Below are positions 8,441-31,020 of a DNA stretch of 64,000 bases, one piece after another (positions within the stretch are counted from its first letter, which is position 1; each line of letters opens with the position of its first letter). A program made the translations under genes and the position numbers. A model generated the notes under the pieces. It searched no databases and was not told the DNA's origin. It saw nothing but the letters and a program-made list of their open reading frames with translations. Source of the DNA: Sarea resinae (lineage: Eukaryota); the NCBI GenBank assembly GCA_026026165.1, contig JAPEUD010000016.1:124001-188000 (forward strand), written 5' to 3'.

Positions 8441-8632
8441 CGTGTTGGAAGTGGTTGTCGTTGTCAGTCGCTGTGGGACTCCAAGTTCTATCTCTGCCCG
8501 TTGGCGTTTCGTTTGCTCTGTTTGTCGCAATCAGATCTCGAACTTTTTCTGGCGGGGTGCGAGGTGGCGGGCGGGGTCGGGAAAACGTTTCGCCAGTCCC
8601 GTTGCGCACGGCACTGTGAACATCAATCACTT

Positions 8633-8641
8633 AAGCCACTT
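8633..8641. repeat. Left target-site duplication AAGCCACTT
   Basis: Identical to 14227-14235 and immediately outside the TIR. Confidence 0.9.
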
Positions 8642-9207
8642 TTACCTCAGCATGCTCAGACCTCCTTTCGTGGCGCCGGGCGTTACCCGGCGCTATTATG
8701 GCATGACTAAGCATGCCCAAATAGGCAACCCACGAAAAGAAGGTCTGAGGCAACTCTTCTGAAAATTTGCAGAACAAGCTAATAATAAATCTGCATTATA
8801 AACATATTTATTAGTATATATCTGCAACTATATCTGTAGCTAGGCTTATAATCTAATTATCTCTAGAGAATATATAAGGCTATCTATTACTATTATCTAT
8901 AGTGTCTAAGGTGTAGTTGTTCCTAAGATCTTATACTTTAAAGTAAAAAGAGCATTGTTACTAATAAGTAAAGTAGTAATATTAGAACAACACCTGCACT
9001 ATATCTGCTATAACAGCTTAAGTGTATAGAGGTAGAGTATAAGACATAATATAGCGCGGTTATATTAAGTCTTATACACTATAATCGCCTTGTTTAATAC
9101 CTAGAAAGAGATGTAATAACTGCAGCAAATATATTTACTAATAGCTAAAAACATCTATAAAGTAAGCCTTATTATAAGCAAAGGCAATAGCATATAGTAA
9201 CCTTAAG

Positions 9208-10239
9208 ATAAATAACAAGCAGCAGATATAAGACCTATAGAACAGACTCTAAGCGCTATATAATACAGATAAAGGAGAATAGCTTCTAGCAATTAACACA
9301 CTTATCTATATAATATATCTATATAGTAAGAGACTAGAGCAGCTAGAGGCACTTTATTAGCTAATATATAAGAAGAAAGATCTCTTTCTAATTGTAAAAA
9401 CCTTGTTTAGTAAGAGTATAATTATGCAGTTAATTCTATACCTTGTTTATAGGGCTATTATTCTTATTATTCTTTTGCTAAATAAGATTAGCAATAAGCA
9501 GACTATATAGATAAAGAAACTTATAGGTATAAAGCCTGTTTATATAATAAGTAATAATAATAACTACTAGTTGCTTAAGGATATCTGTAATAGCAATTAT
9601 ACACATATCCTAATATTGCTAGAACTTATAGTTAGCTTAAAACTAGAGCAGATATAGAAAGACATATAATTATAAGAGCAGATAGCCCTTATAGTATTAG
9701 ATAAAGTTTATCTAGTCTTAGACTAGTCCTTCTTTTATAAGTGTTATACTAGTCTAAATATATTGTATAGATTACTAAGAAATAAGCCCTAGTTTGCTTA
9801 CACTACAACACTAGATAATAACACCTTTATAGAGGTATACTAGCTTACTAGCTTTAACTAAGATATTAGAATAATCTGTATATTAATTAATTAACCTAAG
9901 TTAGCTATTATCTATAAACCTATATCTTATAGTAAGAAGACGTTATTTAACTATCTATATTTTGTTATTAATAGCTTAACCTATAACAATACAGATATAG
10001 CTCTATTAGTAGCAGTTAAGTTAGAGGCTCTATCTATAGCAAGTAGGTTAGAGGCCTTAGTGTTAGCCACGCTAGGCCTAGAATCTAAGAGGCCTACTTT
10101 GTAGCAGATTAAGAAGACAGCGATCTTTATAAGCAGTAAGTAGCAGCTAAAAGAGGCCTGCAATAAAGTCTGTAGATAGCTGCAGAACTATAGATATTTA
10201 GCGTAGTTAGCAATACATATAGTCTAAGTGTATCACGCT
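9208..10239 (+). pseudogene. RIP-degenerate RecQ-like SF2 helicase of the transposon (motifs I-IV), truncated at the nested MITE
   Basis: The frame reads KDLFLIVKTLFSKS (reverts to LIAKTSFGKS, motif I, ~9379-9417) and ALIVLDKVYLVLD*SFFY (DEVH...W..FR, motif II, ~9700). It continues with P*FAYTTTL (WFACTATL, motif III, ~9800), then KTAIF and VYHA just before 10240. The differences are C>T/G>A changes. Confidence 0.85.
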
Positions 10240-10698
10240 TAGGGTGTCTACTTAGGTACCTACTAGGCGGGTAGAGGGGTACGTACCCGCCCACCCGTGG
10301 GTAGCAGGTACCTATAGCAGTATGTACCCGCCTGATAGGACCTGATAGGTGGGCTTAGGTACCTATCATGTGACTTTTTCATAGGTACGTACCTATTATG
10401 TAATCACAAGAAAGGTACGTACCTAGTCATGCTGGGGGTACGTACCTATTCTATGTACCTAAGTATATTATTACCTATAAAATGTTACCTCTATGTGTTA
10501 CCCTACGCGAAGATTTTTGCTTATCTTATCTGATAAGCGGATAATCTGATAAGATCTACCCGCAGAAACCCAATAGGTAGGCTGTAGGCTCTACAGCTGA
10601 TTGAGCCTGCCTAAACCTAACCCGATTATGTAATCAGGCAGGCTAACCTGCCTAAACCTTAATTTAGGCTAAGTACCTAAACCTAAGTAGACAGCCTA
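10240..10698. mobile_element. Nested non-autonomous TIR element (MITE, hAT-like termini)
   Basis: 18-bp TIRs TAGGGTGTCTACTTAGGT (10240-10257) and ACCTAAGTAGACAGCCTA (10681-10698), 17/18 complementary. The interior has repeated GGTACGTACC and GCCTAAACC motifs and no ORF. No TSD is recoverable. Confidence 0.8.
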
Positions 10699-11539
10699 TA
10701 TATATCTAGTAGGAGCTAACACATTGTACAGTTACAGAAGATAAAGGATCTAGCTAAGCTTAAAGATATTAAAGTAGAAGAGGCAGCTATTAGCTCTCTA
10801 CTTACTACTGTATTATTGCCTGCTACCCTTGTTTGTAATAGACTCTACACCTAGCGCGTTGCGTTATCTGCCTGCGCTTCTTATAAGTTAGCTGCTATTA
10901 TTAATAAATATATCTATAACCTTCTTTAGCTATATAATGCTATTTTATCTGCCTCTACTAAAGTAAGAAATATAAATATCGCTAGTATAGTAGAAGATAT
11001 AGTAGAGTTGCAATTAGAGGTGACTTTGTTAAGAGCAGACATTATAAGGCTATCTAGAGATATCTTAGAAATTCTAAATTACATTTACTAATAGTAGTTT
11101 AGCTAGGTTAAGTAATAGCAATAGTTATATAGTTAAGAGTAATTATAATAAGAGTGTTTATAGATACAATAGATATTGTTAGTTGTGTTTGTAGTTGTTT
11201 AGTTAAATGAAATTTTAATAATAATATAATAACTTAGATAATCTAACATAATATCTGCTTATAAGAGCGATATAGTAGGCATTATATTAGGATATCTACT
11301 AAATAAGTTAAGTATCTAATACCTAGAACAGTCTTCTGCATTAGAATTATAAATGTAAAGCTATAGATATACACTTATATTAAGGCCTACTAACACCTCT
11401 ATAACTTATTAGTCTATATTGTTATTATTTGCCTTATCTAGATCTATATATCTGCTACTTAATATAGGTAGTCCTTTTTAAGCTAGCTATATAACACCTA
11501 ATTGCAATAATCCTAGTGCTATATAAGCAGATCTTTTGT

Positions 11540-13900
11540 TCTTATAACAAATAATAGAGTCTTAAGCAATTAAATTTATAAGACTCTTAATATCTGTTGT
11601 AGCAGATCTATTAGTATAAGATGTGTTAATACATTCTCTAAATGTAAATTTAAATTAAGACTGTAGCAGAGTAAGATAACTAGTTATTAATACTAACTAC
11701 TTAAACAATACTATTATATTAAGAGTTAAATTACTCTTAGTCTATAGAATAGTCTTTAGCTATAGATTAAGAAGTTTATTTATCTAATTAACTTTAAAGA
11801 AGGTCTCTAGTTAATTATAGTTGCTAATAAGACTGTTTATAAGTATTGCTTGCTATAGATAACAATTACATATTAGTGTAGATATTAGCTGCTATAAACA
11901 AATTATCTCCTGTAAATAGTTAAACAACTTGCTTCTACTAAAGTAAAGACAACTACAGGCAATTATATAGTAGAGCAATCTAATGTCTGTAGCTTTAATA
12001 GCATGCCTTAATGTTAGGTATATTTTAATATAGTGTATAAAGCAGATATAGTTAAAATACTCTGTATTATAAGGCAGATACTGCTGTTTCTGCTTTTGTT
12101 TCTACTTTAAATCCTTTGTAGCGTTATCTACACAACAAATATCTGCTTTGTATTAAGCTAGCTCTTAATAACTAGCAGCAAAGAAGGCGGTTTTATAGAT
12201 ATCCTCTATATAAGCAAGGAATTCTATAAGAGTTAATATATAGAGGAATATATCTAGTTAACCTAAATACTGTCTTTTCTATACACCTAGGAGTTTTAAT
12301 AAGAATAACACAACTATCTTTGCTTAAAAGCTATGTTAAACAAGCTCTTACTAATAGTAGAAGAGCGCTTTATCTGCAGGTATACTCTAATAGCTAAGGA
12401 AATTAATATACAAATATAGCGTTAAATATTGCTAGAGACTACTCTATCCTTTATAGTGTGATCTAATAATTAATGCTAGAAGGTTTATCTGTATATAGAA
12501 GAGGCTAGGTATAGATAATATCTAGTCTAAGTAGTTGTATCTATCTGCTACCTCTAATTGCTTAAGCTAATATAAGTAGATTAGGCCTGCTGTTTTCTAA
12601 TCACTAAATACTAATATTAGCTGCTTCTTAAAGTTAACTGTGTCTTTCTCTAGCTGACTAGCAAATATGTTGTTTAACACGCTGTATATACTTATAATAG
12701 AACTCTCTAACTTAGTAATTAGTCTAAGAGTAATCTGCTTAGTCTGCCTATATAGAAGGACATTAAGAGTTAGTATTTATAAAAACATAAGGATATTTAC
12801 AGCGAATATATTATTAATAACATCTAGATATACTGTGCAGATAGCACTAGCTATAAAATATATTGAAATCTGTGCCTATATATTATCTATCTAATTTCTA
12901 TCTGCAGCTAGAAGATCTATTATATCTATCTAAACACTAGGATAAAACATATCTTATATAAGTCTATTATCTAGTAGATATTGTCTATGTAATAGTTTTC
13001 TAGTCGTGTATAAATATAGAGTTCCTATATAACTAACTAATTAATGCTGTGTTTTTATATACCACTTAAAATTATTGTATATAACTATATAGTCCTATGT
13101 TTGTATAGCAAAGCAAATAGCTATCTTTAGATAGTTAGCCTTTAAAAATAACAGCGTTTAAAGACTACGTTCTTTACTTTATTCTAATATCTGCTTTTTC
13201 TACGCATCTAATATATAATATCTATCTACTAAGCCTAAGCTATAAAGCGTGCTTATTCCTCTCTAGGTTAGTCTAGAGTCTTATAGATATAGTCTTAGTA
13301 TATAGGCAAAGCAATTTATTGTCTTTTATATATATCTAAGACTAAGTATAGATGTAGTTATAACTAGTTATCTATTATCTGCTAAGTGTGTTATCTGCTA
13401 ATGTTTTGCAATACACTATAATTTAGTAGCTCTACTAATAAGACGTGATAGTATAGGTGTAATAGTCTTTATTTAATCTGTAGAGCTAGCTAAGTTAAGT
13501 GTCTTTAAGTCTATCTCTTTATTATATTAGCTAAGCAGCAGATAGTAGCTTTATAGCTAGTCTAGATCGCTGCAGATAAAAGCAACACTGCTATTAATAA
13601 CTATATCTAGACCTTTATTTATAGTTTATAAGAGATAGATAATGTTGTTAAACTAAAGGACTATATTAAGAAAGGCTTTTTAATGCTTTAACTATATATA
13701 CCTTTAATCTTCTTCTAGATAATTAAGCTAGATCTCTATAAAGTTAATAGGCAATAACTGCTACTCCTATAGCTTTATTAGGATAATCTTAACCTTTTCC
13801 TTTAAAGATAATCTATTAGATACAGATATTAGTTGCTAAGATTAACTATTTATTATTATAGGTGTTATAGTTGCAAACGTCTACAGTGTAGTTAGTGCAG
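11540..13900 (-). pseudogene. RIP-degenerate Academ-type (DUF6589-like) transposase
   Basis: The minus frame gives IYNNF (YDNF, ~13070), VFSD*KT (GDQKT, 12591-12605) and *ILSIPSLFYIQIN (W..PGLFH.QMN, ~12495-12520). It also gives YLTLRHAIKATDIRLL (...DIGLL), NYLQEI, AILINSLI...FFKVN*INKLLN and SYTNRS. Boundaries are approximate. Confidence 0.8.
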
Positions 13901-14226
13901 TTAGTGCAGTTAGTGTAGATATAGTTGTTGTCTTATAACACTTTCTCTAACTAGATAATTTCTTTATAGATATAGATATTGTAATTAATTATATAGTAGA
14001 AGTGTAGCTTTTAATTAATGCAACTTTTAGTGTTGTTAGCGTTATAGTTGCAGATATCTTATGCCTTAAAGTCAGTGATTGTTGACTCTATACAAATCGC
14101 CTGCCTTAGTTATAGTATGTCAGAGAAGTTGCCTTAGACCTCTGGCTGGTGGATTGCCTATTTAGGCAATAGTGGTCCGTGCGCAGCGGACCACCCGCCA
14201 AGCGAGGTCTGAGTATACTGAGGCAA

Positions 14227-14235
14227 AAGCCACTT
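14227..14235. repeat. Right target-site duplication AAGCCACTT
   Basis: Identical to 8633-8641 and immediately outside the TIR. Confidence 0.9.
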
Positions 14236-14563
14236 ATCGGCTCATAATCTACAATCTCGAAGTATGGCTGTATTGGTGATGTGTCTATCATTGTTTATTA
14301 ATCTACCTTGGACGAGGCTTCGAATCTAATGTTATGCCCGTCCTCTCGCCATCGAAAAGTCCTGACGTCCATCAAGTCATCAAATGAAGTGAACAATCAT
14401 GTATCGAGAATAAGTCTGGCAGAATAGCCCATGTCTGCACAAACATAAAAGCTGCCCACACATAGTCGCCGAACAAGTGCAACGCCCTCGTTTACAGTCC
14501 GGACCTTAGAGCCTTTTGGTTTGTTGTATCCTGGTCGTGATAGAAATAACCTGGTCATAGAGT

Positions 14564-16967
14564 TTAACCCTCGCGAGGCGGAGAACCAGCTGCCCTCTTC
14601 GGCTTCAACAACTTCGTTTTGCTATCGAGCGAAGATACAGACCGGACCAGCGCAATAAATGCCGTCTTTTCTTGGATTCGACCCTTGAATTTGGCAACGA
14701 GCGCGGAGATGGTGATGCCATCTTCGGGAAGATTGGCCACGATTTCCTCTTTGGATACTGGAACTGGGGGCGCTGTGTCATGGATGGTCAGCTCGTCGTG
14801 GACACAGGAGAGAAAAGGTAAAGGCAGATACATACGTCGTTGGACGTTAGCTGTCCCAGGAGCGACTGGGCTTCCAGCTCGGCTTCCACTGACAGCAGAC
14901 GGTTTGCGTTGAGGAGCCCCAGCTTGTTCTGGACTACCAGCTCGAGAGCCTTGAGGACTGCCACCTGTAGGAGAACCACCAACACGAAGCTTGATCTTCT
15001 TTCTCTTGTTCGCTCCGTCACTCAGGTCGCCAGCCGTTCCATCACCCTCGCTTCCGGATCCAGCCAGAGCCTGGTGATTCCTCTTTTCCGGACGAGGCGG
15101 AGACGAAGAGATCTCATTGAGCTTAGAGGGCTCAATCGGAATTTTGACGATAGACGATCTCTTCCTTGGACCTTCTGGGGCAGGCGACATGGGTCGGGAT
15201 CCGGGCGCGGTTGTGGTAGGTGAGGTGGCTTGAGAGGCGGCGCCGTGCTTATCCTTGTGCTTCTTGTGCTTCTTTCTGGCAGCGGTCTCCGTGCCACTGG
15301 CTTCCGATAGATTAGGAGAACCAGGACGCTTGAGTGCTGAAGCTGCCTTCTTTGAGTCCTTCTTATCTTTGCCAGATGGTGTGGTCGTGCCTTTCGTCGA
15401 GGTGCCTGACTTCTCGCTCTTGGCCTTTTCCTTTTCTGCGGCAGCCTTTTCTTCCTCCTTTTTCTTCGCCTCCTCTTCTTTTAGCTTCTCTGCTTCGGTA
15501 TCTTCGGACTCGCTCTGTAGCAGGTTAGCATAGAAAGGAAATGGGCAGAGCCAGGTGCCGTCATACTTCTTCGGAGTAAGGATTCTCATCGGAGTCATCC
15601 GTGTAATTGTAGTTTCGTTCTCTCTTCATCAGAGCCTTTCGAGTCCGCTTGCCGAGCTTCTTTTTCATCTCTTTTTCAAGTTGTTCCGCTTTCTCAGCCT
15701 TGTCATAATCTTTCTCATCCTTGAGATTGAAAATGTTCGCCTGTAATTGATCCCGCTTGATCCTCTCCTCGGCTTCTTTGTTTTCCTCCTCGTCGCCCTC
15801 AAAAAGCTGATTCTCTTCATCATCCGCAAAACGATCTTCAACAAAGTCCAGGTCATCTACATCTCCACCACCTGATTTCAGCGCACCGTAGTTCACACCG
15901 GTATCTTCATTGTTGGCTTTGCCAACATATAGCTTGTTCCAAGCCCGCTTATCTTGTGCTTCTTGCTGTCTCTGAGCCTTGGCACGTTGCGTGTCCATGA
16001 ACCATCTAGGTTCTTTCACCTTCTTCGTCATCCTGTCTTCGGCTTCATCGATGTTCAAGGTCTTGAACTGAGCTTTAGCAGTAAATTTGTACCACTTCTC
16101 GAGCGGCACCATACGGAACACCCCAGTGGGCTCCATGACCAGAATAGCATGGGTATCTGACAACGCTGCCTCATAGTTTCCAACCCAGGTATTCTTGTTA
16201 TCGAAGTCCTCGAGATGCCATGGCAAAGCTTCTTCGTATCGTAACTTGGCTTCGGCTTGCCCCTCCTTCGTCTGATCATTCCGAAAAACTTGCTGTGTCT
16301 TCTTCTTGTTGAAGGTGTTCGCCTTCTTCTGACGCTCAGTATTCGCAGAAGGAGCAATCTGGGCCAAGTTGGCTTCTCGTTGGGCCTCCCGTTCTGCCCT
16401 TGCTATCTCTTGTCTCTCTTTCTCTTTATCGTCGATGATGTTCTCCTTCGAATCTGTGGCTTCGTTGTTCTCCTCCTTCATCGCTCCTGCGCCTGCGGGT
16501 GGTGCTCTGGGATCCCGTCGCTGAAGCCGGACAGGCCTTGTGAATTGACTCTCATCCCTCGGGTCGACGTTTTTCTTGGAGGCGAATTTGGCGATATGAT
16601 GGCGAAGGCCTTCGAGCAACGCTCGCTTTGTCGTGAACAGAGGATAGTCCTGAAACGATCCCTCCGGTTTTTCTGAGAAGCCGCTGGTACTGACGCCAAT
16701 AGTGGCTTGATCAGGCGTGGACGTACTGGACGATACTGTCGTTCTAGCGGCAGTCGGTTGCAGGGCTTTTGTGTGAGGCTTGCTATCGCCAACAACAGCA
16801 ATGCCGTTGACACTAGAGGCGGATGTCCCAGGTGGAGCTGGCCTGCGGTTTGCAAGCCTCTTCTTCGGCCTTACAAGAGGGTCGGCTGCTTTAGGACGGC
16901 GGATGAAGGGCGGGGGCACTCCATTTGGAGCTCGAGACAAAGGCGGATTGGGAGGTGTGGCGCTCAT
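14564..16967 (-). CDS. TFG1: Transcription initiation factor IIF large subunit (RAP74/Tfg1); 3 exons
   Basis: Contains FTRPVRLQRRDP, KLRYEEALPWHLEDFDNKNTWVGNYEAALS, FRMVPLEKWYKFT, FADDEEN and ENPYSEE, plus a C-terminal winged-helix-like segment. Introns at 15515-15566 and 14773-14835. Confidence 0.93.
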
Positions 16968-18138
16968 GTTGAAGAATGACGGATGATTTGCAGAGAAGCA
17001 GGAGAGCGAGCGATGAGCCAGCGACGGGCCTCACTGCGAACGCAGAAGTGAAAGCCAACCGTCGCACGCGTCCCGGCCAAGCGGCGCGTCTTTCGTGATG
17101 CTCAAATCAAGCCCGAGACATGAGTGATACGGTCGGGGGTGGTAACGCTGATGGTGGAATCAAGTCTTGACTGATCGTGTTTCTGGAGAGGTCTTGAATG
17201 GTGGCTTTGCTCTTGTGAGACGAGCGTCGAATGGGTGCTGGGAGGATGTGAAGGTGTTGCAGAAGACAGTGTCCTTCTGCTGATCGTATGAGGGTATGAG
17301 GACAAAGATGAGATAGACAAAGATGCAGATGAGGGAAGCGCGATGAAGCGGGAGTATGAGAGGACGCTGTACGGCGAGGTAGGGTACCTAGTATGATTGA
17401 TGTGAAAGCGGCCAGTGACGATTGAGATGGAGGCTCAGCCCTACGGTGTTGCCGCGTACATTTCGGTATGCAATGGGCGGCGAGGGGTGGATTACGGCGG
17501 CCCGTGCTGGTCTGAATGGCAGCTCTATTACGGCATGGGATCTGCGCCGAAACTGCATATAACGCGAGACAGCCCACACGGGTGATATCATACCTCGAGT
17601 TTGCTCCCGCCAACTTCACACTCACCACCTTACAGCAACAAATGCGGAACAACATCGAGGCCGCAGACTCATGAATAACCAAGTCCTTTTCTCTTTCCTT
17701 TCTCTTTCTTCTCGAACTCCTCTCCGCATGCTTGCCATTGGCATGAGGAGAACAGTCAGGAATGAATAAAGCTCGCGTTTGACACAGATACCTACAGCCA
17801 GTACGCGGCGCATCACGCTCTTTTCATTGCATGAGTGGGAACCTTCGGGCGTGGTGAATATCTATTTCTCTACATGAACCTTGGCACCATGTACGCGCCT
17901 CTGTGATCTGGTACTCATACCTACACTTGTCCACGGAACTCTCCTTCTGTTCAGTTCTCGCAGCAGATGGACTCTTTCTGTCTGTATACACCTGTTCGGT
18001 TGCATTATTCGATGCCACACTCTTTCGCAGATTAGATACCAGATATCACGTTCAGAAGCCAGAGAGCAGTGACATCACTCTCGCTGATCATTCGAAGAAA
18101 CAATCTATGGTGACACGACGTCCATCAAACTCGTCACG

Positions 18139-21100
18139 ATGAATCAGAATGAAACCGTCCCGGATGGCATCGCAGCTGGCATGCCATCCGCCCAATCGAA
18201 TGTGCACCGTTCGGCCCCTTCCGCCTCTTTACAGAGCTCAGATGCTGGCTACGCGAACCATGGCCAGTCTTTGCCTACCATCATAGATGGTAATCCGAAC
18301 GGTGCACCACCATTCGCACGAGGCATGATTCCTCCTGACCACCATTGTGTACAACAACATGGCAGTCTACAACGACCTCAGGCCTCCTTCATATCTGATC
18401 AGGCGCCCATCGTTGCTGGCTCTACTCCATTGCCGGCTGCGCAGGGCACCGACTCTTTCGAAAAAGTGAATGATCTTGAGGGTAGACTTCGAGGACTCAT
18501 TTTAGGAAATTCTCAGATAGCGCAGGACAAGACTGGCACTCAGCAAGCTATACGATCACAAGAATCCTCACCATATCACAAGGGCCCTGCGAAACCGCAG
18601 AACCAATCAAGAAGGCACCAGTCGATACCTACTGGTCAGTCGACCAGCGACGCTCAGCATCAAATGCCTCGGCCCCAATCATCCCCGTCAAAAAAGCGAC
18701 CCAATCAAGCACAACGAAGACAGATGCAAACCAAGCCTGATTTGCCCGCCATGACGAGCCCGCCAAAAGCATACTCAGGTCCCACAGCTCAGAACAGAAG
18801 CACGAGTGGCGGTAGGGGCGGTCATTCTATCGGTCCACGTCCAGAGCGAGCCACGGCTGAGTCTCAACGAGCTCAACAATGGCGTGGATTTGCACAGGGA
18901 CACCCGGTTGAACAGCCTCAAGAAACTCAACAAACTCAACAATATCAAAGACCTCAGGTAGGGGGGCCTCCTGGGTTTCACCCACCACAATCATACCATG
19001 GCAACTATGCCCGTCCACCTCCAACACATCATCAGTTGTATGAGCCTACACCATTTGGACATGGTCCACATGCTCAGCAATCAGCGCCCCGATATCAACA
19101 AAATATCAGCGAGAGCATTGCGCAGGCCCGCTATCTAGAGGAGCTGGCTACCACAGCTGTACCGAGTGCGGAGATTGATCCAGCGGAGCTGCAAGAGAAG
19201 GACGAGTTTCGGAAGACCTTGGAGGAAATTTGCAAGGATGCCATCACAAGATACGAATTGGGAAAGGAAGGTCAAAGCTTTGATTCAAACTCTGTAACTT
19301 TGGAATGCTTTGGGAGTTTAAGCTCCGGATTCGCCACTAAGTCGTCGGATATGGATCTCGCTCTCCTTTCCCCAAACTCTAAGCCAGAACCTTCGACCAC
19401 TGCTTCAGCTATCCCACGAATCCTCGAAAAACATTTCCTAGACAGAGGTTATGGCGCAAGGCTTTTAACGAGGACAAGAGTTCCCATTATCAAGTTATGT
19501 GAGAGCCCGACCGAGGAGCTCTTGACGGCGCTGAGGGAAGAACGAACAAAATGGGAGGAGCAAGGAGATGAACCCGAACCCGAGGTCGAACAACAGGACA
19601 ACAGTCCAGATGACCCGACTGATAACATTACTGGAGAAGGAAGCGCAACACCCCGAAAAGACTCTAATGGCGACTCATTTATCAATAGCGAGCTTGTGGG
19701 ATTCTCACAGAAGCCTCAAGAATCGCTCTGGCAGTACTGTCGTAGGGCGAGAAGGGTACTGGAAAGCATTGGAGGGCGTGATTACATGATGCCAAGACAT
19801 CGCAAATTGGAATTTGAGGAGGGCCAACTCCTCAATTCCATGTCAAAAGCTTTTGTCGTTGGTTTACACGATCACAAGTTGAAAGAAAGGCTTCTGTCTT
19901 ACAAATCGGTCGCCTTCGAGGCTGGATTTCGATCACTGAATGGGATATGGGTACAGACAGAGGGCGAGCGAATGGTGATGGGCTGGGAGAGCAGAACCAT
20001 CTCGGAAGCCAGTGAAGAAAAAGAAGCACAAGGCCAGATGGTCGTGGATGAATGGCACCAACTTCAGGATAAAGATTCAACCGACATCCTAGCTTTCAAT
20101 GAAGCCTTACATAAGCTCTGGGAGAAAATAAAGCTCTACCCCTCTGCAAAGCTTGCTATTCTTGCGCAAGGCCCAGACGAGAGCTCGCGATCCTATAATG
20201 TCCGCACTACAGCAATCCTGAGAGAGCTGGGAGGTCGAGACCTTACGGATGATCCGCCACTTTCTTCAAGGGAAGCATCTGTCTTTGAAGCAGTGGTTGC
20301 TAAATTCATTGAAGGCATTCGTGGCACTGCCGAAAAGGAGCTTGTCCGCGAATTCTGTTCTTCAAGAGAGAACATCAGCCTCGCAGACATGGCAGCGCAA
20401 TTCATTGCAGAAAGTCAGATGTACCACTATGAGCACCCAAGTCGTTCGACACATTATACAGATGACGAAAAGTCCGTTATTCGGACTTACGCCAGTCTCA
20501 TCCGTCAGCACGGCGCCTCAGCACACCTTCCTGAACTTGCTACAGCCCACCAACAACTCAACCAACTTGCAGACCCGACATCCTACCAGCGTGAGCGCAC
20601 GGGTGATAAGCTTGACTTTCCAAAGACAGGCGTCGGCATCCAATGCGATATCAACTTCTCGAATCAACTTGCTCTTCACAACACTGCTCTCCTCCGCTGT
20701 TACTCTCTCTGCGACCCGCGCGTCCGCCCGATGGTACTCTTTGTTAAAGCCTGGGCCAAGAAGCGCCAGATAAATAGTCCATATAATGGCACCTTATCAT
20801 CCTACGGCTACGTTCTGATGGTTCTTCATTTTCTCGTCAATGTCGCTCAGCCGCCGGTCGTCCCGAACCTCCAACTTGCCTGGCGTCCCCCCCATCTGTC
20901 CCCAAACAAGGACAATACCCGCGAGCCCCCAACTACACTCCAAGGCTACGACATCCGCTTCTGGCGCTCCGAGCCCGAAATTCGTCATCTTGCATCTCAA
21001 GGTCACCTGACGCAGAACCATTCCCCCCTCGGATTCCTTATTCGCGACTTCTACGCCTACTACGCGGCCCAAGGCCCGCTGATCCCCTCTCGCGGCTTCA

Positions 21101-21687
21101 ATTGGTCTACCGACGTCCTCTCCCTCCGCACAAAAGGAGGTCTCCTCTCCAAGCACGCCAAAGGATGGACCGCGGCGAAGATGACCACCATGGCCGATGC
21201 AGGCGGGAAGACAAGGGAAGTCAGACATCGCTATCTGTTGGCGGTCGAGGATCCGTTTGAAGTCGATCACAACGTCGCGAGGACGGTGACGCATCATGGT
21301 GTGGTGGCCATCAGGGACGAATTGCGGCGAGCGTGGCGGATTCTGGGAAATGTAGGGAGGTCTGGAAATGTTGGCGGAGAAGGGGGCATCTTTGATGATC
21401 TGAATGCTACGAGTGCAACTCCGATCTCGAGTGTAGCCCCTACTACAGCCGCCACCGCTGATGCACCAGCTTCGACGAGCGCGGCCGACGCTTCCTCGGC
21501 CTCTTCACTCGTAAGCCCAACCAAGGTCCACGAGGACCAAACCCAGCTCCGTTCCAAGGCGGACACGCAAACCAAAGCAGCAGGCCCCCTCGATCAAAGC
21601 TCTCTTCAGAAGCAAGGACAAGAAGCACAGCCAACTCCCGCGACGGATCAAATCCAGTCTATCAAGACAAGCCGCAAAGACCTCTGA
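18139..21687 (+). CDS. Cid1/Cid13/Cut-family terminal nucleotidyltransferase (TUTase / non-canonical poly(A) polymerase), 1182 aa, single ORF
   Basis: NTase motif FGSLSSGFATKSSDMDL, then RTRVPIIK and the third Asp in GIQCDINFSN. DPRVRPMVLFVKAWAK...GTLSSYGYVLMVLHFL is present, as is the PAP-associated LAVEDPFEVDHNVARTV. There is a long Q/P-rich N-terminus and a large insertion inside the catalytic domain. Confidence 0.93.
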   Translation: MNQNETVPDGIAAGMPSAQSNVHRSAPSASLQSSDAGYANHGQSLPTIIDGNPNGAPPFARGMIPPDHHCVQQHGSLQRPQASFISDQAPIVAGSTPLPAAQGTDSFEKVNDLEGRLRGLILGNSQIAQDKTGTQQAIRSQESSPYHKGPAKPQNQSRRHQSIPTGQSTSDAQHQMPRPQSSPSKKRPNQAQRRQMQTKPDLPAMTSPPKAYSGPTAQNRSTSGGRGGHSIGPRPERATAESQRAQQWRGFAQGHPVEQPQETQQTQQYQRPQVGGPPGFHPPQSYHGNYARPPPTHHQLYEPTPFGHGPHAQQSAPRYQQNISESIAQARYLEELATTAVPSAEIDPAELQEKDEFRKTLEEICKDAITRYELGKEGQSFDSNSVTLECFGSLSSGFATKSSDMDLALLSPNSKPEPSTTASAIPRILEKHFLDRGYGARLLTRTRVPIIKLCESPTEELLTALREERTKWEEQGDEPEPEVEQQDNSPDDPTDNITGEGSATPRKDSNGDSFINSELVGFSQKPQESLWQYCRRARRVLESIGGRDYMMPRHRKLEFEEGQLLNSMSKAFVVGLHDHKLKERLLSYKSVAFEAGFRSLNGIWVQTEGERMVMGWESRTISEASEEKEAQGQMVVDEWHQLQDKDSTDILAFNEALHKLWEKIKLYPSAKLAILAQGPDESSRSYNVRTTAILRELGGRDLTDDPPLSSREASVFEAVVAKFIEGIRGTAEKELVREFCSSRENISLADMAAQFIAESQMYHYEHPSRSTHYTDDEKSVIRTYASLIRQHGASAHLPELATAHQQLNQLADPTSYQRERTGDKLDFPKTGVGIQCDINFSNQLALHNTALLRCYSLCDPRVRPMVLFVKAWAKKRQINSPYNGTLSSYGYVLMVLHFLVNVAQPPVVPNLQLAWRPPHLSPNKDNTREPPTTLQGYDIRFWRSEPEIRHLASQGHLTQNHSPLGFLIRDFYAYYAAQGPLIPSRGFNWSTDVLSLRTKGGLLSKHAKGWTAAKMTTMADAGGKTREVRHRYLLAVEDPFEVDHNVARTVTHHGVVAIRDELRRAWRILGNVGRSGNVGGEGGIFDDLNATSATPISSVAPTTAATADAPASTSAADASSASSLVSPTKVHEDQTQLRSKADTQTKAAGPLDQSSLQKQGQEAQPTPATDQIQSIKTSRKDL

Positions 21688-22682: not shown

Positions 22683-25600
22683 TCAAGCGAGTTGGCTCTT
22701 CTTAAGCTCGGGCGACTTCGTGCCATCCTCATACTTTTCCCAGTTGGCCAGCACGGCGCCGATCTTGGGGGAGTTGGTCAGGCGGTAAACATCCTCGAAG
22801 TACTCCTTGGTCAGCTCAAAGGGTTTCGCAGTAACGTTGGGAATGTATTTGCCGACCAGCTTCGAGGGGTCGATGGTGGTCTTGTTGATCTTGCGCAGCA
22901 GGAAACTGCGGAAGGGCTTCACGCCCGATCGCAAGAATGTGGAGTGGAAGGGAACGTCAATGCCCTTGAGCGGGATGGTGGCGAAGCCGCGTTGGAGCTC
23001 AATGGGCTTGGGCTTGGCTTCTGTCTGCTTGGCGCATTCGCGAATGATTTCGACGAGGTGCGCTTTGACGTCTTCGAGGGACATTGATTGCATGAGGGCT
23101 TGGATGTCGATCTTTTGGGCTTTGAGGTAGTTGAGGACATTGGTCATGCAGTCGAGGGCACGGAGCTGAAATATCATATTAGATTTGCTTCTCAGAAGGC
23201 AGATGGACTTGTAACTTACATCACCGGCTGCCACGTACTGCTGGTTAACGACATTGTAGTTGACAATTTCCAGAAGCCATTTCGTCTCCTCGGCAATGTT
23301 CTCCACAACGAATTGAAGCGCTGGCTCGTTAAAGGCTATGACTGTTAGCTTATCCTTTCAAGTGATTTAAAGCTCGACTCACTCTTTGAGATTCTGCTTG
23401 GGTTGACCGCAGCCATGGAGTAGTTTGATCGGCCAGCGGCGTCACGTTCCACAGCGACTTGCATAGTCAGACCACGATAGAACACGACAGAAACCAAACT
23501 CTCAATAGGCATGACCTCGGCGAGCGCCGCAAGAGCAGAATACTCTCCTAGGGAGTGACCAGCGAAGCTGCTGTCCCGCTGGACGAGACCCTTTGAAAGC
23601 ATATCTTCAAATGATGCCTTCTCCATCAATGTCAGGGCCGGCTGGGTGAATTGCGTTGCTGACAGAAGACCAGTGGGTGATCGGTAGGTGTACGATGTGC
23701 TGTTCTCATCGACTTCCTTGAATATTTTCTCAGACTTGATGGAGCCGTCGGAGCTGACCGTCTCAAAGGTCATTGACATGTAGTTTTGGCGGATAGCCTT
23801 GCCACGAGGACCACCAAAGTAGATGGTAAGCTCCTTGGGATTGTTCTTGACGATGTTGGTGATTGAGAAACCATAGTTGTCCATGAAGTGCTTGTCTGCG
23901 CGATCCCAAACTTCCTTGGCGACCGGGCTGCTTTCATATAATTCCATACCCATGCCTTGTTCTTGAGAACCTTGACCGGTGAAAACATATGCGGAGACGG
24001 GCTGTTCGACCTCTGCCTCGCCAAGTATCACCTTCTCTTCTGTTTCCTTATTACTTGCTTCGACCTTGATGATTTTACGGCCAGCAACCATGCCGACATG
24101 CTGTAGCTTGACTTCAATGTCGTCATTCGGTAAGACCATGCCCACTAGCGACACATTGAATCCCCGAACACGGCCGATATTGTTCTCTGCCGCCCAAGTC
24201 TCCACCAAGCTGCGCACTGCAGCGCTGGAGTACATGCCATGGGTAATAGTACCGGGGAGGTTTGCGTACTTGGCGAACACGCGAGACACATGGATCGGGT
24301 TGTAGTCACCGGAGACACGAGCGTATGTGTCGTTGGCGGCCGGAGCTCTGAGAACCAAGGGGGTCTTTCCGTTCAAGGGAATAGCATTCTCGAAGTGGAC
24401 TGGCTGTTCAATTGAAGAACCATATCTCTGGAGGTAGTCGATGACAGGGTTGCCGTGAGAGACGCCAGCTTCATACTGAACCGAGGCGACCTGGATGATT
24501 TCTTTCGTAGGCAACTCGACGAGCACCTGACCGACAGTCTCAACACTTTGGAACACGCTCTTATTCTTGAATCGAACAAGGCTCTGCAACCTGAAGGTAA
24601 GGGTTTGATTGAGCAGCTCAGTGTCAGGCTCATCGAGGCGGAACCATTCCTTTGAGCGGAGAACAGCAACATCCTTGGTTGTTGCCAAGTGAAGCTGCAT
24701 TGGCGTCTCTTCCTTGCGCTGGAATGTATTCTCAAAGTCGGTATATACGCCTCGGTACAAGAATTGGCTTGTGACTTCCATTACCGGCTTTCCTTCTCGG
24801 ATGATTGTGCCACAAACCTCTACCATCTTGCCTGATTCCTGGTTGATCACGGCGTTGACTTGAGCGGTGGTATCAAGTACGTCGCCCTTCTTGAGAGGCT
24901 CGGCGCCAGGGATCATCCTGAAGCCGTTTGAAAGATGGACAAGCTTCAAGAGGTCGCCATCAATAGATCTCGGGAAGATGGGCTTGGTGATAGCTTTCCA
25001 ACCAACAACGATGGCAAAATCCATGGGTGCGAAAACCTCCTTGTCGGGTCTGTCAACGAACGCTTCGCCAGTGTTGCCGACCGCATGAACAAAGTCGGCA
25101 ATTGCTTGGCTCGTGACTGTCGTACGTCCACCTTCGAAAGTGCTAGTGACAGGAGTATCGAAGGGAACCTTTTCGTCGCCAAACCAGACACGGAAGTAGA
25201 ATTCTTTGATACGATCGTTTCGGCCTTCCATGACTTCGTGGATGGGGGCATAGCCAGCCTCCGGGTGATAGGTAAACTTGAGAGGTAGGGCGACAACCTT
25301 GCCTTCAGCGGTACGCTCTTCGAGCATGTTCACAACAATCTCATTCTTGCCCGTCAGGCTCGCCTGGAGTGTCTGAACAAGTTTCCCAGCTTGTGATGGC
25401 TCCTTCACACTGACCACGGTCTTTGATGGCTGGTTGGGATTGCGGATCTCAACCACCATCCCAGTAGCGGGAGAAAAGATACGCTTCATTGGATTGGTTT
25501 GGAATTCTTTGCCTTGGACGAAGATTTCCGCGGTGAAAAGAGCATGACGCCAAGAATAGGACTTGCCGGCGAGAAGCTGCAGCCACGCCTCTGTGTTGGG

Positions 25601-28600
25601 GAGCGTAGCACTCGGAGATGCAGAGAGTCGGTAGGTGACCTTGTCGCTGTCTTCTGAGATAGTCAAACCTTCCACGTCCACATCCTTCTCTGCTGCCAAG
25701 AGCTTGCCACCGAAGTATTCGATCTCGGGAATCTTAGATTCATCACCGCCATAGATATCCTGAGTGAGACTCTTGATATGAAATTGATGAATGCCACCTA
25801 GGATATCACCGACTGGCTCATCGACAACCTTGGAGTATTTAGCAGCCATTGGGCCCTGGAGAATGCAGGTTCTCCCGACATCCTGGTCGACGACAGCTTC
25901 GAGATCTTCAGATTGCCAGAGCGAATCTTTCTTAAAGTAGAATTCGAAGTTTTCATCGAGGGCTGGCACGAACGGGACAGGCTTTTGAATGATACGCTGA
26001 CAGAGCAGGAGGAAATGCTGTACGTCTTGAGCGTTGATGAGTTGTTGCTCGGCCTCGGGGTAAGCTTTAAGGACCTTGTCAACCACTGGGAACGGATCGT
26101 GAAGGTCGGAGTAAGACTGGAGGAGAGAAGCCTTGCCAGGGCTGGAAGTAAAACGTTCTTCCACCCGGCGGATAAAGTCGCCAGTCATACGCTCAAGGGA
26201 CGCATCGATCCATCTTGATTCGTGCTTGACATACATCAACTCAACCAAACGCTTCATCACTTCCGCATAGGTCATGTCTTCGAGGTCAACGGACTCGCCA
26301 GCCGAATTTCGACCAAACCATGGTTTCTGGAAGTCATCGTTCAACTTCTTGATAATGTAGTCGCGGTTTTTCTTAAGTTCAACAAGACGCTTGGCCTTGT
26401 CTAGGCTGAAGATCTTCTGGTCCATTTCGGCCCAGAATTTCACACCACGGGTTGCAAGCTTATGGATAGGCTCGCCCATCTCAGATCGAACAGTGATGAC
26501 GCCACCTGCAGGTCCTTTGTATGTCTTCTCCCACTCGTGGTCATCTAAGCCTTCGGCTTCAGTGATAGCCTTCTTGGCAGTCTTGGAAGTGTGTGCTTCT
26601 TTGGCCGTCATCATACGGCTTCCAAATAGACACCCGTCAAATGGCATGGGAGGATATCCGAATCGGTTGGACCAAGTACCGGTAAGATAGGGGTATGTGT
26701 CTTCGGCACCACCGAAGCCACTACCTGCGACCAGGACTATGTTCTCACATCGACGGATCCGGCCATACATTTGCAGGATTGGCTGATGGAAATCCTCAAA
26801 GGAGTGATGCCCGCCTCCTCGACCGCCAGTCCATTGAAGCATGATAGGGAAGGTGGGGTTGGCTTTGGCAATATTGATGACCTGCTGGATGGCTTCTCCG
26901 GAGCCTGGTTTGAAAGAGATGTGCTTGACACCAAGGGTTTCGATGTATTCGTTAGCGACCTCGATAGAAGGAACACCAGCTCCGATAGTCATGCCTTCAA
27001 TCGGCACACCTTGGGCGCGCAATTGTGCGAGCATAGGAACCTGCCACGCCATGGCGCGAGGATTGACGTAGATCAGATTGACGGCGATACCGCGGCCGGC
27101 AGGGATGGCTTTCGCAATCTTCTTAATGGCGTCGGTCATGAAGTTGGGGGCGAAGTATCCACCTCCAGCGAGCTCGATGTGGTAACCAGCGTTCATCGTA
27201 GCAGCAACAAAGTCCCAGGGAACTGTACATGGCGTCATTCCAGCAACCATAACAGGCGGTAATCCGATCAATCGGCTCATCTTCGTGTCGACAAATGTTT
27301 GCCCGACGGAAGTCTTGACCAACTTAGGGCCATGCTCTTTCACCCAGTCGACAGCATATTGGACAGCGTTCTCGTCGCGATCGAAGAGCTCAGGTTTGTA
27401 GCCTACTTCGGCGTTGGTTCCGTCTATCGCGCCCGCAAGGATCACTCTGACACCGGTGCCCTCTTTGATTCGGTTGGTCAGGACTCCGAGACCAGAGATA
27501 CCTCCGGGGCCGAAATCGAGAATGTGGGTGGCTTGTGGGAAGACGGTTGCCTTGTCCCAATGGACCGGTTCGCGGGTGATCATCCTCACGAGAGCCGGAA
27601 CCGCGTTCTGATCGCCATTGCCTCTGATGTCTTCTCCGGTATTGGTATCATAGACGGGGATCTTCATGTCTTTCACGGGGATGCTGACATCGCTGAGATC
27701 CTCCTGGAGATGCTTATAGGCTTCCTCGAGGTATGGGCTGTGGAAGGGAGCAGTGATGGGAAGGAAGCGGTTAACAAAGCGGACTTTCCGGTCAGTGAAA
27801 GGAATGCGCGTCTGGTCCAGACCTGTGGGGGCTTTGACCTTGCGCAATCTCAAGTTGAGACCGTACAGGGAGATGGGGGGACCAGTCACCACAAAATTCC
27901 GTGTGCTGTTCACCAAAGATATTCCGATCCGACGCTCTTCGGGGAGATGGTGATTCGTTGCGTCGATGTGCTCCTGCACAGCGGACTTGGAAAGATCTCG
28001 GATAGACAGCATGGGCGTCGGAATGCCCTCGCCATTATCCATTGAATCCTGGAGGACTGACGGGGCCAAGGATGTCCGCGGATAAGCTTGCTGACTGCGG
28101 GAACCGATCCAAAAGAGGGTCTTCAAAGCATCTTTGGCGACCTTGTCGAAGGATTCCCAATCACTGGCCGCCGCAATGGCAGCAGCAGTGACGATACCCT
28201 GCGAGTGACCAGTGCTACCGGATAGGCGCTCCCTCACTTCCCCGGGAGTTCTACCAACCACCTTGCATGTGACGGTAAAGTGTGCAAGTTGAACCAAGCC
28301 AATTAATGGCAAACTGACTGGAGCCGAAACGAGATAATCGGTATCCGGTTGGGTATCTCTGTTATGGAGCCATTGCATGGCGTCGAGGCCTTTGGAATAG
28401 AGCTTGGCAACTCGCTCGTCTCGAGCTAGTCCCTTTAGTAGTTCTGCAGACGACGAGATGAACTCCTCCACGAAAGATGGGTATGTGTTGTAGACTTCGC
28501 GGAGCTCATCAAAGTACTCCTCGATGTTTCCCTGGCCTCCGAAGATGGCGTAGACCTTGGCAACGTCCTCCCCGGCCGCACGGAAAAGAGCAGACTCGTG

Positions 28601-29059
28601 GGACTTGAGAGGTCTGTTGGAAGAAGCGCGGGCTGCATAGTACGACTGGACAACGATGAGCTTCTTCGCCGCGATCCCCGGCAACGAAGCCGCAACGGCG
28701 TGGACATCGTTGCCTCGGAGGAAAGCCCGCTCAAAGTCGCCCAAAACATTCTTCAGGACTTCTTCGTAGGAGCCTTGTGTGTCATCCTCGCCATCATCCA
28801 CCGCCTTTGCAACGAAGCCAAGATATCGAGCGACCAGTTCCGTCACTGACGATGGCTCCTCATCCAGAGCAAGCTCGTCCGTTGGCTCGGGGAGAGTCGC
28901 TGTGAATTCATCCTTCAACTGCGATGCGTGGAAGTGAAGAGCGGTAGATATTAAGAAAGAGTAATCGAGGGAGCCATGTGTAAGAGTAAGAGGGCGAAGA
29001 GATGACGAGAATCGAGGAGTCGAGACACCCGTATGGGCGCCGGTACCGTTTCCGTACAT
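22683..29059 (-). CDS. FAS1: Fatty acid synthase beta subunit (AT, ER, DH, MPT); 3 exons
   Basis: Contains FGGQGN, GHSQG (AT), [12 protein letters not shown] (ER), SGDYNPIH (DH), FTGQGSQ/GHSLGEY (MPT) and [12 protein letters not shown]. Introns at 23336-23382 and 23166-23219; a probable 5'UTR intron lies at 29086-29171. Confidence 0.98.
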
Positions 29060-31020
29060 GATGGAATTCGAGCTTTCTCACAGAACTGTCCTCCAGTTAG
29101 CTGTGGACCATCCAGATCCGCACCCGGCCGCGGCAGCTCCAGAGAAGTGAGCAAATATCGCTGCAACGTACCTCTCTTAAGAGAATCCTCGTGCTGATAG
29201 AGCTCCGTGATGGCTGCAAAGACAGCTCTTCAGTTCTCGCTCAAGCTCCCAATGACCGTCGCTCGAGTCGAAAACCAAGAAGAAGCCGAGGAGTGCAGCA
29301 CCCTCGAAGAGGTGAAGAGATTGATGTGGCTGATCGAGGAGGAGAGGATTGATGATGGGGTCTCCTTGAGTGATGAATTGAGACTTGTAGAAGGTGCAGA
29401 ACGGCGATGTTCAAACTTGTCGCTCACTACCACTGTAGGCCTTGACACTACTCGAACTGCTGCTCTTCACCACTCTACGGGGGCCGAACAATAATTTCTC
29501 TTGAGGTTGAGACTACAGTACGCCTTGCTGTGAAGGGTTAGGCCATTCAATGGGCTCTTCGTCTACTCGGAGTGCATGACCACGGAACCGAGCAGCACCG
29601 GGGCTTGCGGCAAGGTAGACCACTGCATCTCACTGCGGGACAGTGACAAGCTGCACTGGTAATGGGGGACGGATCAATGGTCGTTGAATCGTTGGGACGT
29701 TAGACGGAGGATGGTGGGGACCAGGATGTCAGTGGTGGCGCCGTTTCTACCATGTACTCGGGTGGTACCGCTCCAGGTACCGACGTACCCTTCCAGTGAC
29801 TCTCCGAGCCTCCTTTAAGCCGATTGACGATCATCTGAGTACCTCGAGTCCGCATCTCCCTCCGCCCGAGGGTACCTTGATGCTACCTCGACCGTCAGCT
29901 GCCAAGCATAAGGGTCCCTCGCCAGAGCGAGTGTGCGTGCGGTGTCGGTAGCTCAGCAAGGCCTGTACCTTAGCTCCTTGTAGCTCGGAGACTGGCAGCT
30001 TAATCTGAAATCTAAAATGGCCCTGGCCGGCATCTCGAAATGAGATGAAGGCAGCACACGAGCACGAGGCAACGAAGCATGCATTCCTTTTCCATGTTTC
30101 CACCGCAGTGATGACTGATATGAAGGGCGACCATGCCACTCATCCAGCTTGAACGACAGTAATCATGACATGGAGGTCCCCCTCTGTAGATATCTATCCT
30201 TGTCCAAGGATCCATCCCAACGACAGGAGGCGCACATCATCCTGCAGATGTTGACAAGGGATCCGATGAGAATCGATGCAGGTCAAAAGGCAGAGCAGTT
30301 CTCTCTCGGACAACGTACTGGAAGCCGGCCATGCTATTGGGTAGCCGTCGGCTCGTTGAGGGTTAGTCAAATCAACGATTTTTGCTGTGGCCGTCGTCTG
30401 GTGGGGAGCCGAGCAAATGAGAATGGAAAATAGCAGTTGAACCTTGAAGGAAGAGGCATGGCGAGGAACAGGCGAGTCAAGCAGCGACGCGGTACACGAG
30501 TTCCGTGGTGTGAAGTACTGGAACTTTAGAAGAAGGTTCCAAGTGGTCCCTTCTGAGCTGGAAGTGTACACGCAGATACCTACTTAAAAGTACCGGAGAC
30601 CTTTTCCCCGTGCTGCACCGTACACCCACCAGTAGCGGAGACGGTGAGACTCGAAAGCTGTGCCAGCTTCGTACATGTACTACTTCCTACGAGAGCCTTC
30701 AACTTTTCCTCAACCTCCAAGGCTGTCTGTCTACGTGCTGCCGACTGCTCTCTCCATCACCTCTCACTTCATACCTCCATTGGGCAGATCTGGCCTTCCC
30801 TTCCTCCTTCACTATCCCATCATCGTCTTTATTGACGACGCTCTCTCACTCCCGGCGGGTCTTCATTGCCTTCGTCCTTGACCTGGTCTCAACAGAACTC
30901 AGGGCACCTCGGTCGCTGTGCAATCCATGAACGACGCTTCAATACATACCTAATTGATACCCCAGCTCATCTGCCTTTGTCATTTCTTTCGAGCCTCACA
31001 TCATTGCACATCAATCCAAA
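29060..31020. promoter_or_regulatory. Shared bidirectional promoter/5'UTR region of the divergent FAS1-FAS2 pair
   Basis: Head-to-head start codons at 29059(-) and 31021(+). CT-rich tracts precede both starts and no credible ORF lies between them. Confidence 0.7.

Follow-up and report, generated by a model that had tools for sequence, protein, structure and literature searches.

A Cid1-type terminal uridylyltransferase of Sarea resinae carrying a duplicated capsid-CTD-like module, probably Gag-derived, within its palm domain

Two kinds of described systems, the terminal uridylyltransferases (TUTases) of the Cid1 type and the host proteins domesticated from Gag capsids, stand closest to a gene of the fungus Sarea resinae found in a 64,000-nucleotide stretch of contig JAPEUD010000016.1 (GenBank assembly GCA_026026165.1, positions 124,001 to 188,000 of the forward strand), hereafter the window. 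The gene encodes an active-looking TUTase in which a loop of the palm domain was probably expanded by a captured and duplicated Gag fragment that would now serve as an adaptor. Cid1 of Schizosaccharomyces pombe (4ep7, 4fh3, 4ud5 and other structures) has the same catalytic core as this protein, with a G-S pair, a DxD motif, a third aspartate and a DxxExxH motif, the last being described in the available part of one report as the U-specific nucleotide-recognition cluster of the enzyme (PMC5689010). Other members of the family carry additional segments within this core. In human TUT1, the palm includes a proline-rich region (residues 235-304) that separates D216/D218 from D381, and the accessible text of the study gives an in vitro efficiency of 96% for the enzyme lacking it (PMC5467268). 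The trypanosome enzymes RET1 and RET2 have an RRM-like domain within the catalytic fold, according to the portion of the source that was at hand (PMC5159558). By analogy, these inserts suggest that extra segments at this place are tolerated in the family.

Domesticated capsid domains such as those of PEG10, MOAP1/PNMA, Arc/dArc, SCAN and the yeast Drt2 are free-standing or N-terminal in transcription factors, whereas the one considered here sits inside a loop of an enzyme. Most known cases of Gag co-option come from animals. A 2021 survey, in its accessible text, records no co-opted gag documented earlier in fungi and adds three (Crtg12-14) in other lineages, and neither the word "polymerase" nor "nucleotidyltransferase" occurs in that text (PMC8321522). 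Titles and abstracts of the literature covered, which leaves out subscription journals, describe no capsid- or Gag-like domain in any terminal nucleotidyltransferase, and the available parts of two further sources (bioRxiv 10.1101/422972 and PMC4858684) contain nothing on this protein. A domesticated capsid domain and a TUTase with an insert in its palm are thus both of a known kind, while their combination is apparently undescribed.

The gene extends from 18139 to 21687 on the forward strand (stop codon included), is free of introns and lies in a single frame of 1199 codons, open from stop to stop at 18088-21687. Its first methionine, at 18139, gives a protein of 1182 residues (P0001). The N-terminal part of the palm (residues 343-457; 19165-19509, forward), with G392-S393, D404, D406 and the strand RVPIIKL, matches PF22600, the palm of Cid1/MTPAP-type nucleotidyltransferases, at E 9.8e-19 (68.3 bits, gathering cut-off 27). 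The third catalytic aspartate, D837, lies in the strand IQCDINF (20638-20658, forward), and a PAP-associated domain (residues 964-1044; 21028-21270, forward), ending in D1038-x2-E1041-x2-H1044, matches PF03828 at E 6.2e-10 (39.6 bits, gathering cut-off 22.6). Of the proteins with a solved structure, S. pombe Cid1 is the one matched best in sequence (E 8.5e-56), with G392-S393, D404, D406 and D837 aligned to its hG[GS], DxD and third-aspartate motifs. These five residues are invariant in all 57 aligned relatives (D837 is D498 of the alignment's first row), and D1038-x2-E1041-x2-H1044, aligned to the Cid1 segment that holds H336, is invariant in 4 of 4 sequences. An AlphaFold model of residues 340-1075 (736 residues) reached a predicted local distance difference test score (pLDDT) of 88.3 and a predicted template modelling score (pTM) of 0.71, and its core matched Cid1 4ud5_A in Foldseek at E 3.8e-16 with 43% identity. 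Judging from its sequence, P0001 is apparently an active Cid1-type terminal uridylyltransferase, U-specific by motif and with its catalytic residues intact.

The difference from Cid1 lies in the palm. The match between the two proteins falls into two pieces, P0001 residues 386-455 on chain residues 46-110 and 831-1071 on 117-326, which indicates that approximately 375 residues (456-830; 19504-20628, forward) replace 6 of Cid1. The insert is thereby placed between the RVPIIKL strand and the strand of the third aspartate, where a first-pass annotation of the window had put one of about 370 residues. The strings quoted in that annotation were all located (RVPIIKL at residue 447, QKPQES at 524, AFVVGLHD at 571, QGPDES at 677, KFIEGIRG at 722 and IQCDINF at 834), and the region it had singled out, 19702-20355, corresponds to residues 522-739. 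The insert opens with a conserved helix (residues 459-475; 19513-19563, forward; consensus P..L...L..ER.KWE), helical at positions 120-136 of the 340-1075 model, followed by an acidic and probably disordered tether (residues 480-510; 19576-19668, forward), where pLDDT is below 50 at positions 141-171 of the same model. Two modules follow, each predicted to be a helical bundle resembling the C-terminal domain (CTD) of the capsid protein (CA) with extra helices: module 1 at residues 517-649 (19687-20085, forward) and module 2 at residues 668-794 (20140-20520, forward), the borders having been set by a hidden Markov model (HMM) of the pooled modules. Module 1 shows the motifs L..L.Q....SL..YY..AKR.L and, further on, AFV.GL.D..LR.RL; in module 2 the corresponding stretches read Q677-x3-E681-x4-Y686-x2-R689 and Y/F..GI. 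Beyond module 2, a conserved stretch at 20560-20637 (residues ~808-833; consensus L.DP....RDRY.D.LEFPK.G.G) leads into the catalytic strand and may hold the chain where it re-enters the palm.

The kinship of the two units, as annotated at first pass, has been borne out at two levels. Compared directly by BLASTP, those of P0001 share 28% identity over 65 residues (E 2e-6 for a single comparison), and their profiles, built from 60 orthologues, match in hhalign with a probability of 98.8% (E 1.1e-16, 69 columns). Profiles of the longer halves (residues 515-667 and 668-800) match over 118 columns (E 6.4e-16), so each module measures about 130 residues. The module HMM, run on the six-frame translation of the whole window, found the two known copies and no other. 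As the modules are duplicates of each other, a reading of the pair as the N-terminal domain (NTD) and CTD of one capsid was rejected.

An AlphaFold (AF2) model of residues 505-833, built with 59 homologues, is all-helical, with a pLDDT of 93.5 and a pTM of 0.87; its residue n is protein residue n+504. The model was compared by VIA-align, a method independent of Foldseek, with 48,161 representative chains. Capsids or capsid-derived proteins fill ranks 1-16 and make up 30 of the best 50 chains. The CA-CTD of Rous sarcoma virus (RSV) matched model residues 163-255 with a score of 8.4 and a root-mean-square deviation (rmsd) of 2.3 Å over 77 of 77 residues, and that of murine leukaemia virus (MLV) matched residues 160-257 (8.2; 3.0 Å; 84/87). 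The HERV-K Gag match covers 94 residues at 161-268 (7.8; 3.7 Å). Host proteins follow, with the CA-like CTD of PEG10 on residues 157-261 (6.9; 3.6 Å; 85/85; 19% identity), the Ty1 CA-CTD protein Drt2 on 157-258 (6.2; 3.3 Å; 86/90) and the dArc2 C-lobe on 159-260 (6.0; 3.3 Å; 83/84), while the CA-like CTD of MOAP1 falls on module 1 (residues 8-120; 7.1; 3.9 Å; 96/101). Two-domain capsids superpose on the pair only at an rmsd of 9-15 Å. The Copia capsid (7.8; 13.5 Å; 168 residues) and PNMA2 (7.4; 10.7 Å; 147 residues) span both modules, at model residues 14-262 and 18-256, and rat Arc (5.8; 9.9 Å; 137 residues) extends over 22-255.

Other searches with this model agree. In a further structure comparison, 50 of the 50 matches listed are capsids, and in Foldseek against the PDB retroviral capsids account for 27 of the 43 matches listed, with E-values of 0.12 to 1.2. 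By their end residues, model residues 168-255 were aligned to HIV-1 CA 150-218/221 and RSV CA 153-226. The four-helix CA-CTD is aligned over the whole domain, to which each module adds one or two helices at its C-terminal end. The retroviral CA-CTDs of RSV, MLV and HIV-1 are the best structural matches, aligned over the entire CTD with an rmsd of 2.1-3.0 Å, and differ from the modules in these additional helices and in sequence, with 13-18% identity in the structural alignments. The predicted fold of the modules is therefore capsid-CTD-like.

Conservation was counted, as were consensus and charges, in a local alignment of the inserts of 60 relatives. The major homology region (MHR) of capsids, at the start of the CTD, has the invariants Q-x3-E-x7-R. 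In module 2, L675 is found in 54 of the 60 sequences, Q677 in 56, E681 in 57, Y686 in 60 and R689 in 59, followed by L697 (54), Y/F723 (58), G726 (60) and Y784 (56). This module keeps Q-x3-E-x4-Y-x2-R, which by its letters is the spacing of the capsid MHR, so that the Q-x3-E-x7-R arrangement is common to module 2 and the retroviral CA-CTDs. Provided that the first helices are aligned gap-free, Q677, E681 and R689 would fall on what we take to be the MHR invariants of HIV-1 and RSV. In module 1, the counts of the 60 are 42 for L522, 58 for Q524, 40 for S529, 49 for L530, 57 for Y533, 47 for A537, 45 for K538 and 52 for L541, and then 54 for F572, 59 for G575, 52 for L576, 54 for R584, 59 for E610 and 60 for W639. 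At position 528, E occurs in 19 of the 60 sequences and Q in 24, and at position 536 R occurs in 17. The motif positions named in the first-pass annotation are thus conserved in orthologues as regards Q, E, Y and R of module 2 (56-60 of 60) and Q524, Y533, F572 and G575 of module 1, and not as regards E528 and R536.

At the level of protein families, homologues were scanned with Pfam, 48 of them at E<=0.05 and 33 at E<=0.01. Outside the TUTase families, Retrotrans_gag (PF03732) was the sole recurrent family, with sub-threshold matches in 11 of the 81 proteins (14.5-20.9 bits where the gathering score is 24.1; lowest E 4.3e-4), the highest score, 20.9 bits, belonging to P0020. These matches lie in the N-terminal part of a module, 8 in module 1 and 3 in module 2, and always concern profile positions 32-97. 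When 46 isolated modules were scanned at E<=10, Retrotrans_gag again came first, with matches in 4 of 46 (lowest E 0.0011), ahead of one family found twice and others found once each. Leaving TUTase families aside, the neighbours that a protein language model gives for module 1 are clusters of Retrotrans_gag followed by Ty3_capsid, Caulimovirus coat and Gag_p30; the score of 0.81 makes this a lead only. The sequence support for Gag ancestry is weak, yet it points in one direction, and the earlier description of the modules as capsid-like is sustained, given that CA-CTDs head the structure searches.

Several results weigh against descent from Gag. None of 82 proteins reaches the PF03732 gathering score, and membership of this Pfam family does not hold. 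Neither P0001, nor its insert, nor either of its two units has a Gag match in Pfam even at E<=10; at that threshold CHASE7 (E 0.21) was the only family matched by the insert or the units. When the 46 modules were made into a profile and all PDB sequences were searched with it (E<=10), six sequences came up, none of them a capsid; they include a de novo designed protein (E 0.03) and the death effector domain of caspase-8 (0.8-1.4). The zinc knuckle CX2CX4HX4C occurs in 0 of 89 proteins and the insert holds no Gag N-terminal domain, so that it does not amount to a complete Gag. Unlike the domesticated Gag capsid domains, P0001 has two CTD-like copies, neither capsid NTD nor zinc knuckle, and a Gag similarity below threshold. 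Of the MHR-type residues, module 1 conserves Q524 alone and neither the E nor the R. As for structure, in Foldseek, with which the first-pass annotation had proposed to test an AlphaFold model, capsids dominate the matches listed, as they do the first ranks of VIA-align, and no PDB entry was matched at E<=0.001 (best 0.12). Against BFVD there was likewise no match at E<=0.001, the best being herpesvirus ICP4c (0.14), with scattered Gag entries at 0.26-1.4 among the matches listed.

These observations bear on a different origin, in which the modules would be a lineage-specific helical elaboration of the palm loop, duplicated and convergent on the four helices of the CA-CTD, with no Gag ancestry. 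Every Gag sequence match being below threshold, the lack of capsids in the PDB profile search, the Foldseek E-values of 0.1 or worse and the conserved E and R missing from module 1 would all fit such an origin, which is nonetheless judged unlikely. HMM, Foldseek, VIA-align and language-model features all indicate the same superfamily and no other; the first 16 of the 48,161 chains are all capsids, with whole domains covered; and Q-x3-E-x4-Y-x2-R is retained in 56-60 of the 60 sequences in the position that the same motif occupies in capsids, at the beginning of the fold. Common ancestry of the modules with Gag thus appears fairly likely. As the Pfam threshold is not reached, we label them capsid-CTD-like and probably Gag-derived rather than members of PF03732.

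The distribution of the insert across fungi gives an indication of its age. An exhaustive phmmer search with the insert alone against 1.84 billion representative sequences retrieved 79 relatives at E<=1e-3, of which 72 at <=1e-10, whereas a word-index search with the same query found only three. Nearly all of these relatives are ~1000 residues long, with the match to the insert at ~350-800. TUTase families were identified in 76 of the 81 homologues scanned with Pfam, the other five being fragments of 136-325 residues. In the precomputed Pfam annotation of the relatives, the two TUTase families are the only ones given, which upholds the earlier proposal that the insert is common to ascomycete orthologues and unannotated there. 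Exactly two modules are found in 63 of the 65 proteins of at least 780 residues, and none of the 65 has three. The two others are P0002 (915 residues, source name Pycnora praestabilis), with one module in a 276-residue insert, and P0080 (1030 residues), with no detectable module in an insert of 286 residues that matches only the last 64 residues of the P0001 insert.

Source names were looked up for 33 of the proteins, and include Xylona, Geoglossum, Sclerophora, Peltula, Pycnora, Sarcosagium, Claussenomyces, Diplocarpon, Pseudogymnoascus, Apiosordaria, Xylariaceae, Parahypoxylon, Microdochium, Coniochaeta and Phyllachora. In a taxonomy look-up, each of the first five was assigned to a separate class of leotiomyceta (Xylonomycetes, Geoglossomycetes, Coniocybomycetes, Lichinomycetes and Candelariomycetes) and Sarcosagium to no class; the other named genera presumably belong to Leotiomycetes and Sordariomycetes. 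The insert is therefore spread over a minimum of five named Pezizomycotina classes, seven being the probable number. Names of Eurotiomycetes or Dothideomycetes do not appear among the 33, about half of which are nameless, so that no conclusion is drawn on those classes. Most likely, a Gag fragment was captured in a permissive loop, that between the RVPIIKL strand and the strand of the third aspartate, and was duplicated before the leotiomyceta classes diverged. The loop would thus have been expanded by a helix, an acidic tether and two modules, the latter being since kept as a fixed pair. If Gag-derived, the pair would count among the oldest captures of the Gag type, would be the first embedded in an enzyme rather than free-standing or fused to an end, and would represent a new regulatory module for the Cid1/TUT family.

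Inserts elsewhere in the family differ from this one in their nature. According to the available text, that of TUT1 is a stretch of 70 proline-rich residues predicted to be disordered, whereas the one described here is a folded pair of helical modules; that of RET1 and RET2 is, as far as the consulted part of the source goes, folded and inside the catalytic domain as here, and is RRM-like rather than a capsid-CTD-like pair. Besides the insert, the long Q/P-rich N-terminal region and the C-terminal tail set P0001 apart from Cid1.

The models also suggest how the pair may be carried. A pTM of 0.87 for the pair alone and of 0.71 for the 736-residue region may be read as a rigid two-module body on flexible tethers; in the 340-1075 model, pLDDT drops below 50 at residues 818-820 as well as at 480-510, with block means of 68-74 at residues 810-829. 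The two modules would accordingly pack as one body, tethered flexibly beside the catalytic core. The net charge of residues 456-514 is -13 in P0001, with a median of -7 in the 60 orthologues, while modules 1 and 2 have medians of 0 and -2 (-3 and -4 in P0001). As the modules are neutral to slightly acidic, protein binding is more plausible for them than a plain RNA-binding surface. Taking into account the tethered arrangement, the near-neutral charge and the tolerance for inserts at this place, the pair may be a protein-binding adaptor that chooses partners, and with them where, or on which RNAs, U tails are added. Such a role seems about as probable as its opposite. The insert also offers a handle on how substrates are chosen in the cytoplasmic uridylation of filamentous fungi, and on whether retroelement control is coupled to it.

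The charges also bear on the proposal that the pair is an additional RNA-binding surface by the active site, like the middle domain of the trypanosome TUTases, setting substrate preference or processivity. The position inside the catalytic domain is that reported for the RET1/RET2 middle domain in the available part of the source (PMC5159558), and basic positions are conserved among the 60 sequences (K538 in 45, R584 in 54, R689 in 59 and R789 in 50). The modules nonetheless have no net positive charge, and the tether is strongly acidic and of low confidence. To our knowledge, CA-CTD domains are not RNA binders either, and this role is considered very improbable.

CA-CTD-type domains commonly self-associate, and the folds closest to the modules include the assembling proteins PNMA2, Copia and Arc. 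It could thus be envisaged that CTD-CTD contacts of the pair, like those of SCAN, PEG10, Arc or PNMA proteins, drive oligomerisation or the assembly of capsid-like shells. The model of a single chain, however, already packs the two modules together (pTM 0.87), and their interfaces may be satisfied internally; a capsid N-terminal domain is absent, and the two-domain capsids align only at the large deviations given above. A homodimer prediction with two copies of residues 505-833, run without controls, scored 0.00 against a mark of 0.32 and is evidence neither way. This role, too, has little probability.

A further reading follows the first-pass annotation, which proposed a defence or decoy system. 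The capsid-like pair would recognise, or co-assemble with, the Gag of long terminal repeat (LTR) retrotransposons and so lead the uridylyltransferase to the particles or RNA of these elements, restricting them. TUT4/7 are known to uridylate LINE-1 RNA, and host proteins that derive from capsids and act on capsids exist, the PDB entry "Drt2, an Endogenised Ty1 Gag CA-CTD Restriction Factor" being among the VIA-align matches. Along with the capsid-CTD-like fold, these precedents favour the proposal, as does the decay of a repeat 4 kb upstream, of the type left by repeat-induced point mutation (RIP), which suggests that repeated and mobile DNA is under pressure in this organism. In contrast, many classes share one fixed architecture and motif, where factors engaged in an arms race would be expected to turn over; the neighbouring genes are of the housekeeping type (TFIIF-alpha and fatty acid synthase subunits), and the window holds no further copy of the module in any of its six frames. 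Fixed architecture and motif, together with such a neighbourhood, are more easily reconciled with a stable cellular role than with an arms race. The restriction system is accordingly regarded as doubtful, and retrotransposon Gag is an improbable partner of the module pair. In a more specific form, an ancient pair of Gag CTDs would act as a capsid-recognition head that docks on the Gag lattices of LTR retrotransposons or mycoviruses while the tethered enzyme adds U tails to the packaged RNA. This form is distinctly improbable; if true, it would constitute an innate anti-retroelement system in which a capsid-binding restriction factor and the logic of TUT4/7 and LINE-1 are united in one polypeptide. 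As to the adaptor reading, the stable conservation of two modules looks more like that of a fixed housekeeping adaptor than of an arms-race factor.

Outside the catalytic domain, the N-terminal region of P0001 (~340 residues) is Q/P-rich and poorly conserved apart from two motifs, and the C-terminal tail comprises ~110 residues. A leucine-rich motif, LE.RLR.LIL.N, lies at 18475-18510 (residues 113-124) and a basic motif, K...NQAQRRQM, at 18691-18729 (residues 185-197). Both are invariant in four orthologues and present in the consensus of 60 rows, and they could be export/import or partner-binding signals.

The surroundings of the gene include an AT-rich block at 7900-14500, with a GC content of 0.34 against 0.52-0.55 elsewhere. 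In this block the TpA/ApT index is 1.49 and the (CpA+TpG)/(ApC+GpT) index 0.78, compared with 0.55-0.66 and 1.19-1.29 in the rest of the window, values that are typical of RIP by the usual thresholds. No open reading frame (ORF) of at least 130 residues was found between 8760 and 14566. Located ~4 kb upstream of the gene, the block probably represents a repeat or transposon that has decayed. An ORF at 15564-17030 (reverse) has a TFIIF-alpha domain (E 9.3e-09); it immediately precedes the uridylyltransferase gene and lies on the opposite strand. On the other side lies a divergent pair of type I fatty acid synthase genes. The beta subunit (22686-29077, reverse) has Fas1-like helical, MaoC, acyl transferase and SAT domains, and the alpha subunit (30958-36613, forward) has acyl carrier protein, ketoacyl synthase and phosphopantetheinyl transferase domains. 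Additional genes of the window encode a DUF383/DUF384 protein (6629-7486, reverse), a short-chain dehydrogenase (60079-60675, reverse) and a protein with a CRAL/TRIO N-terminal domain (61314-62048, forward).

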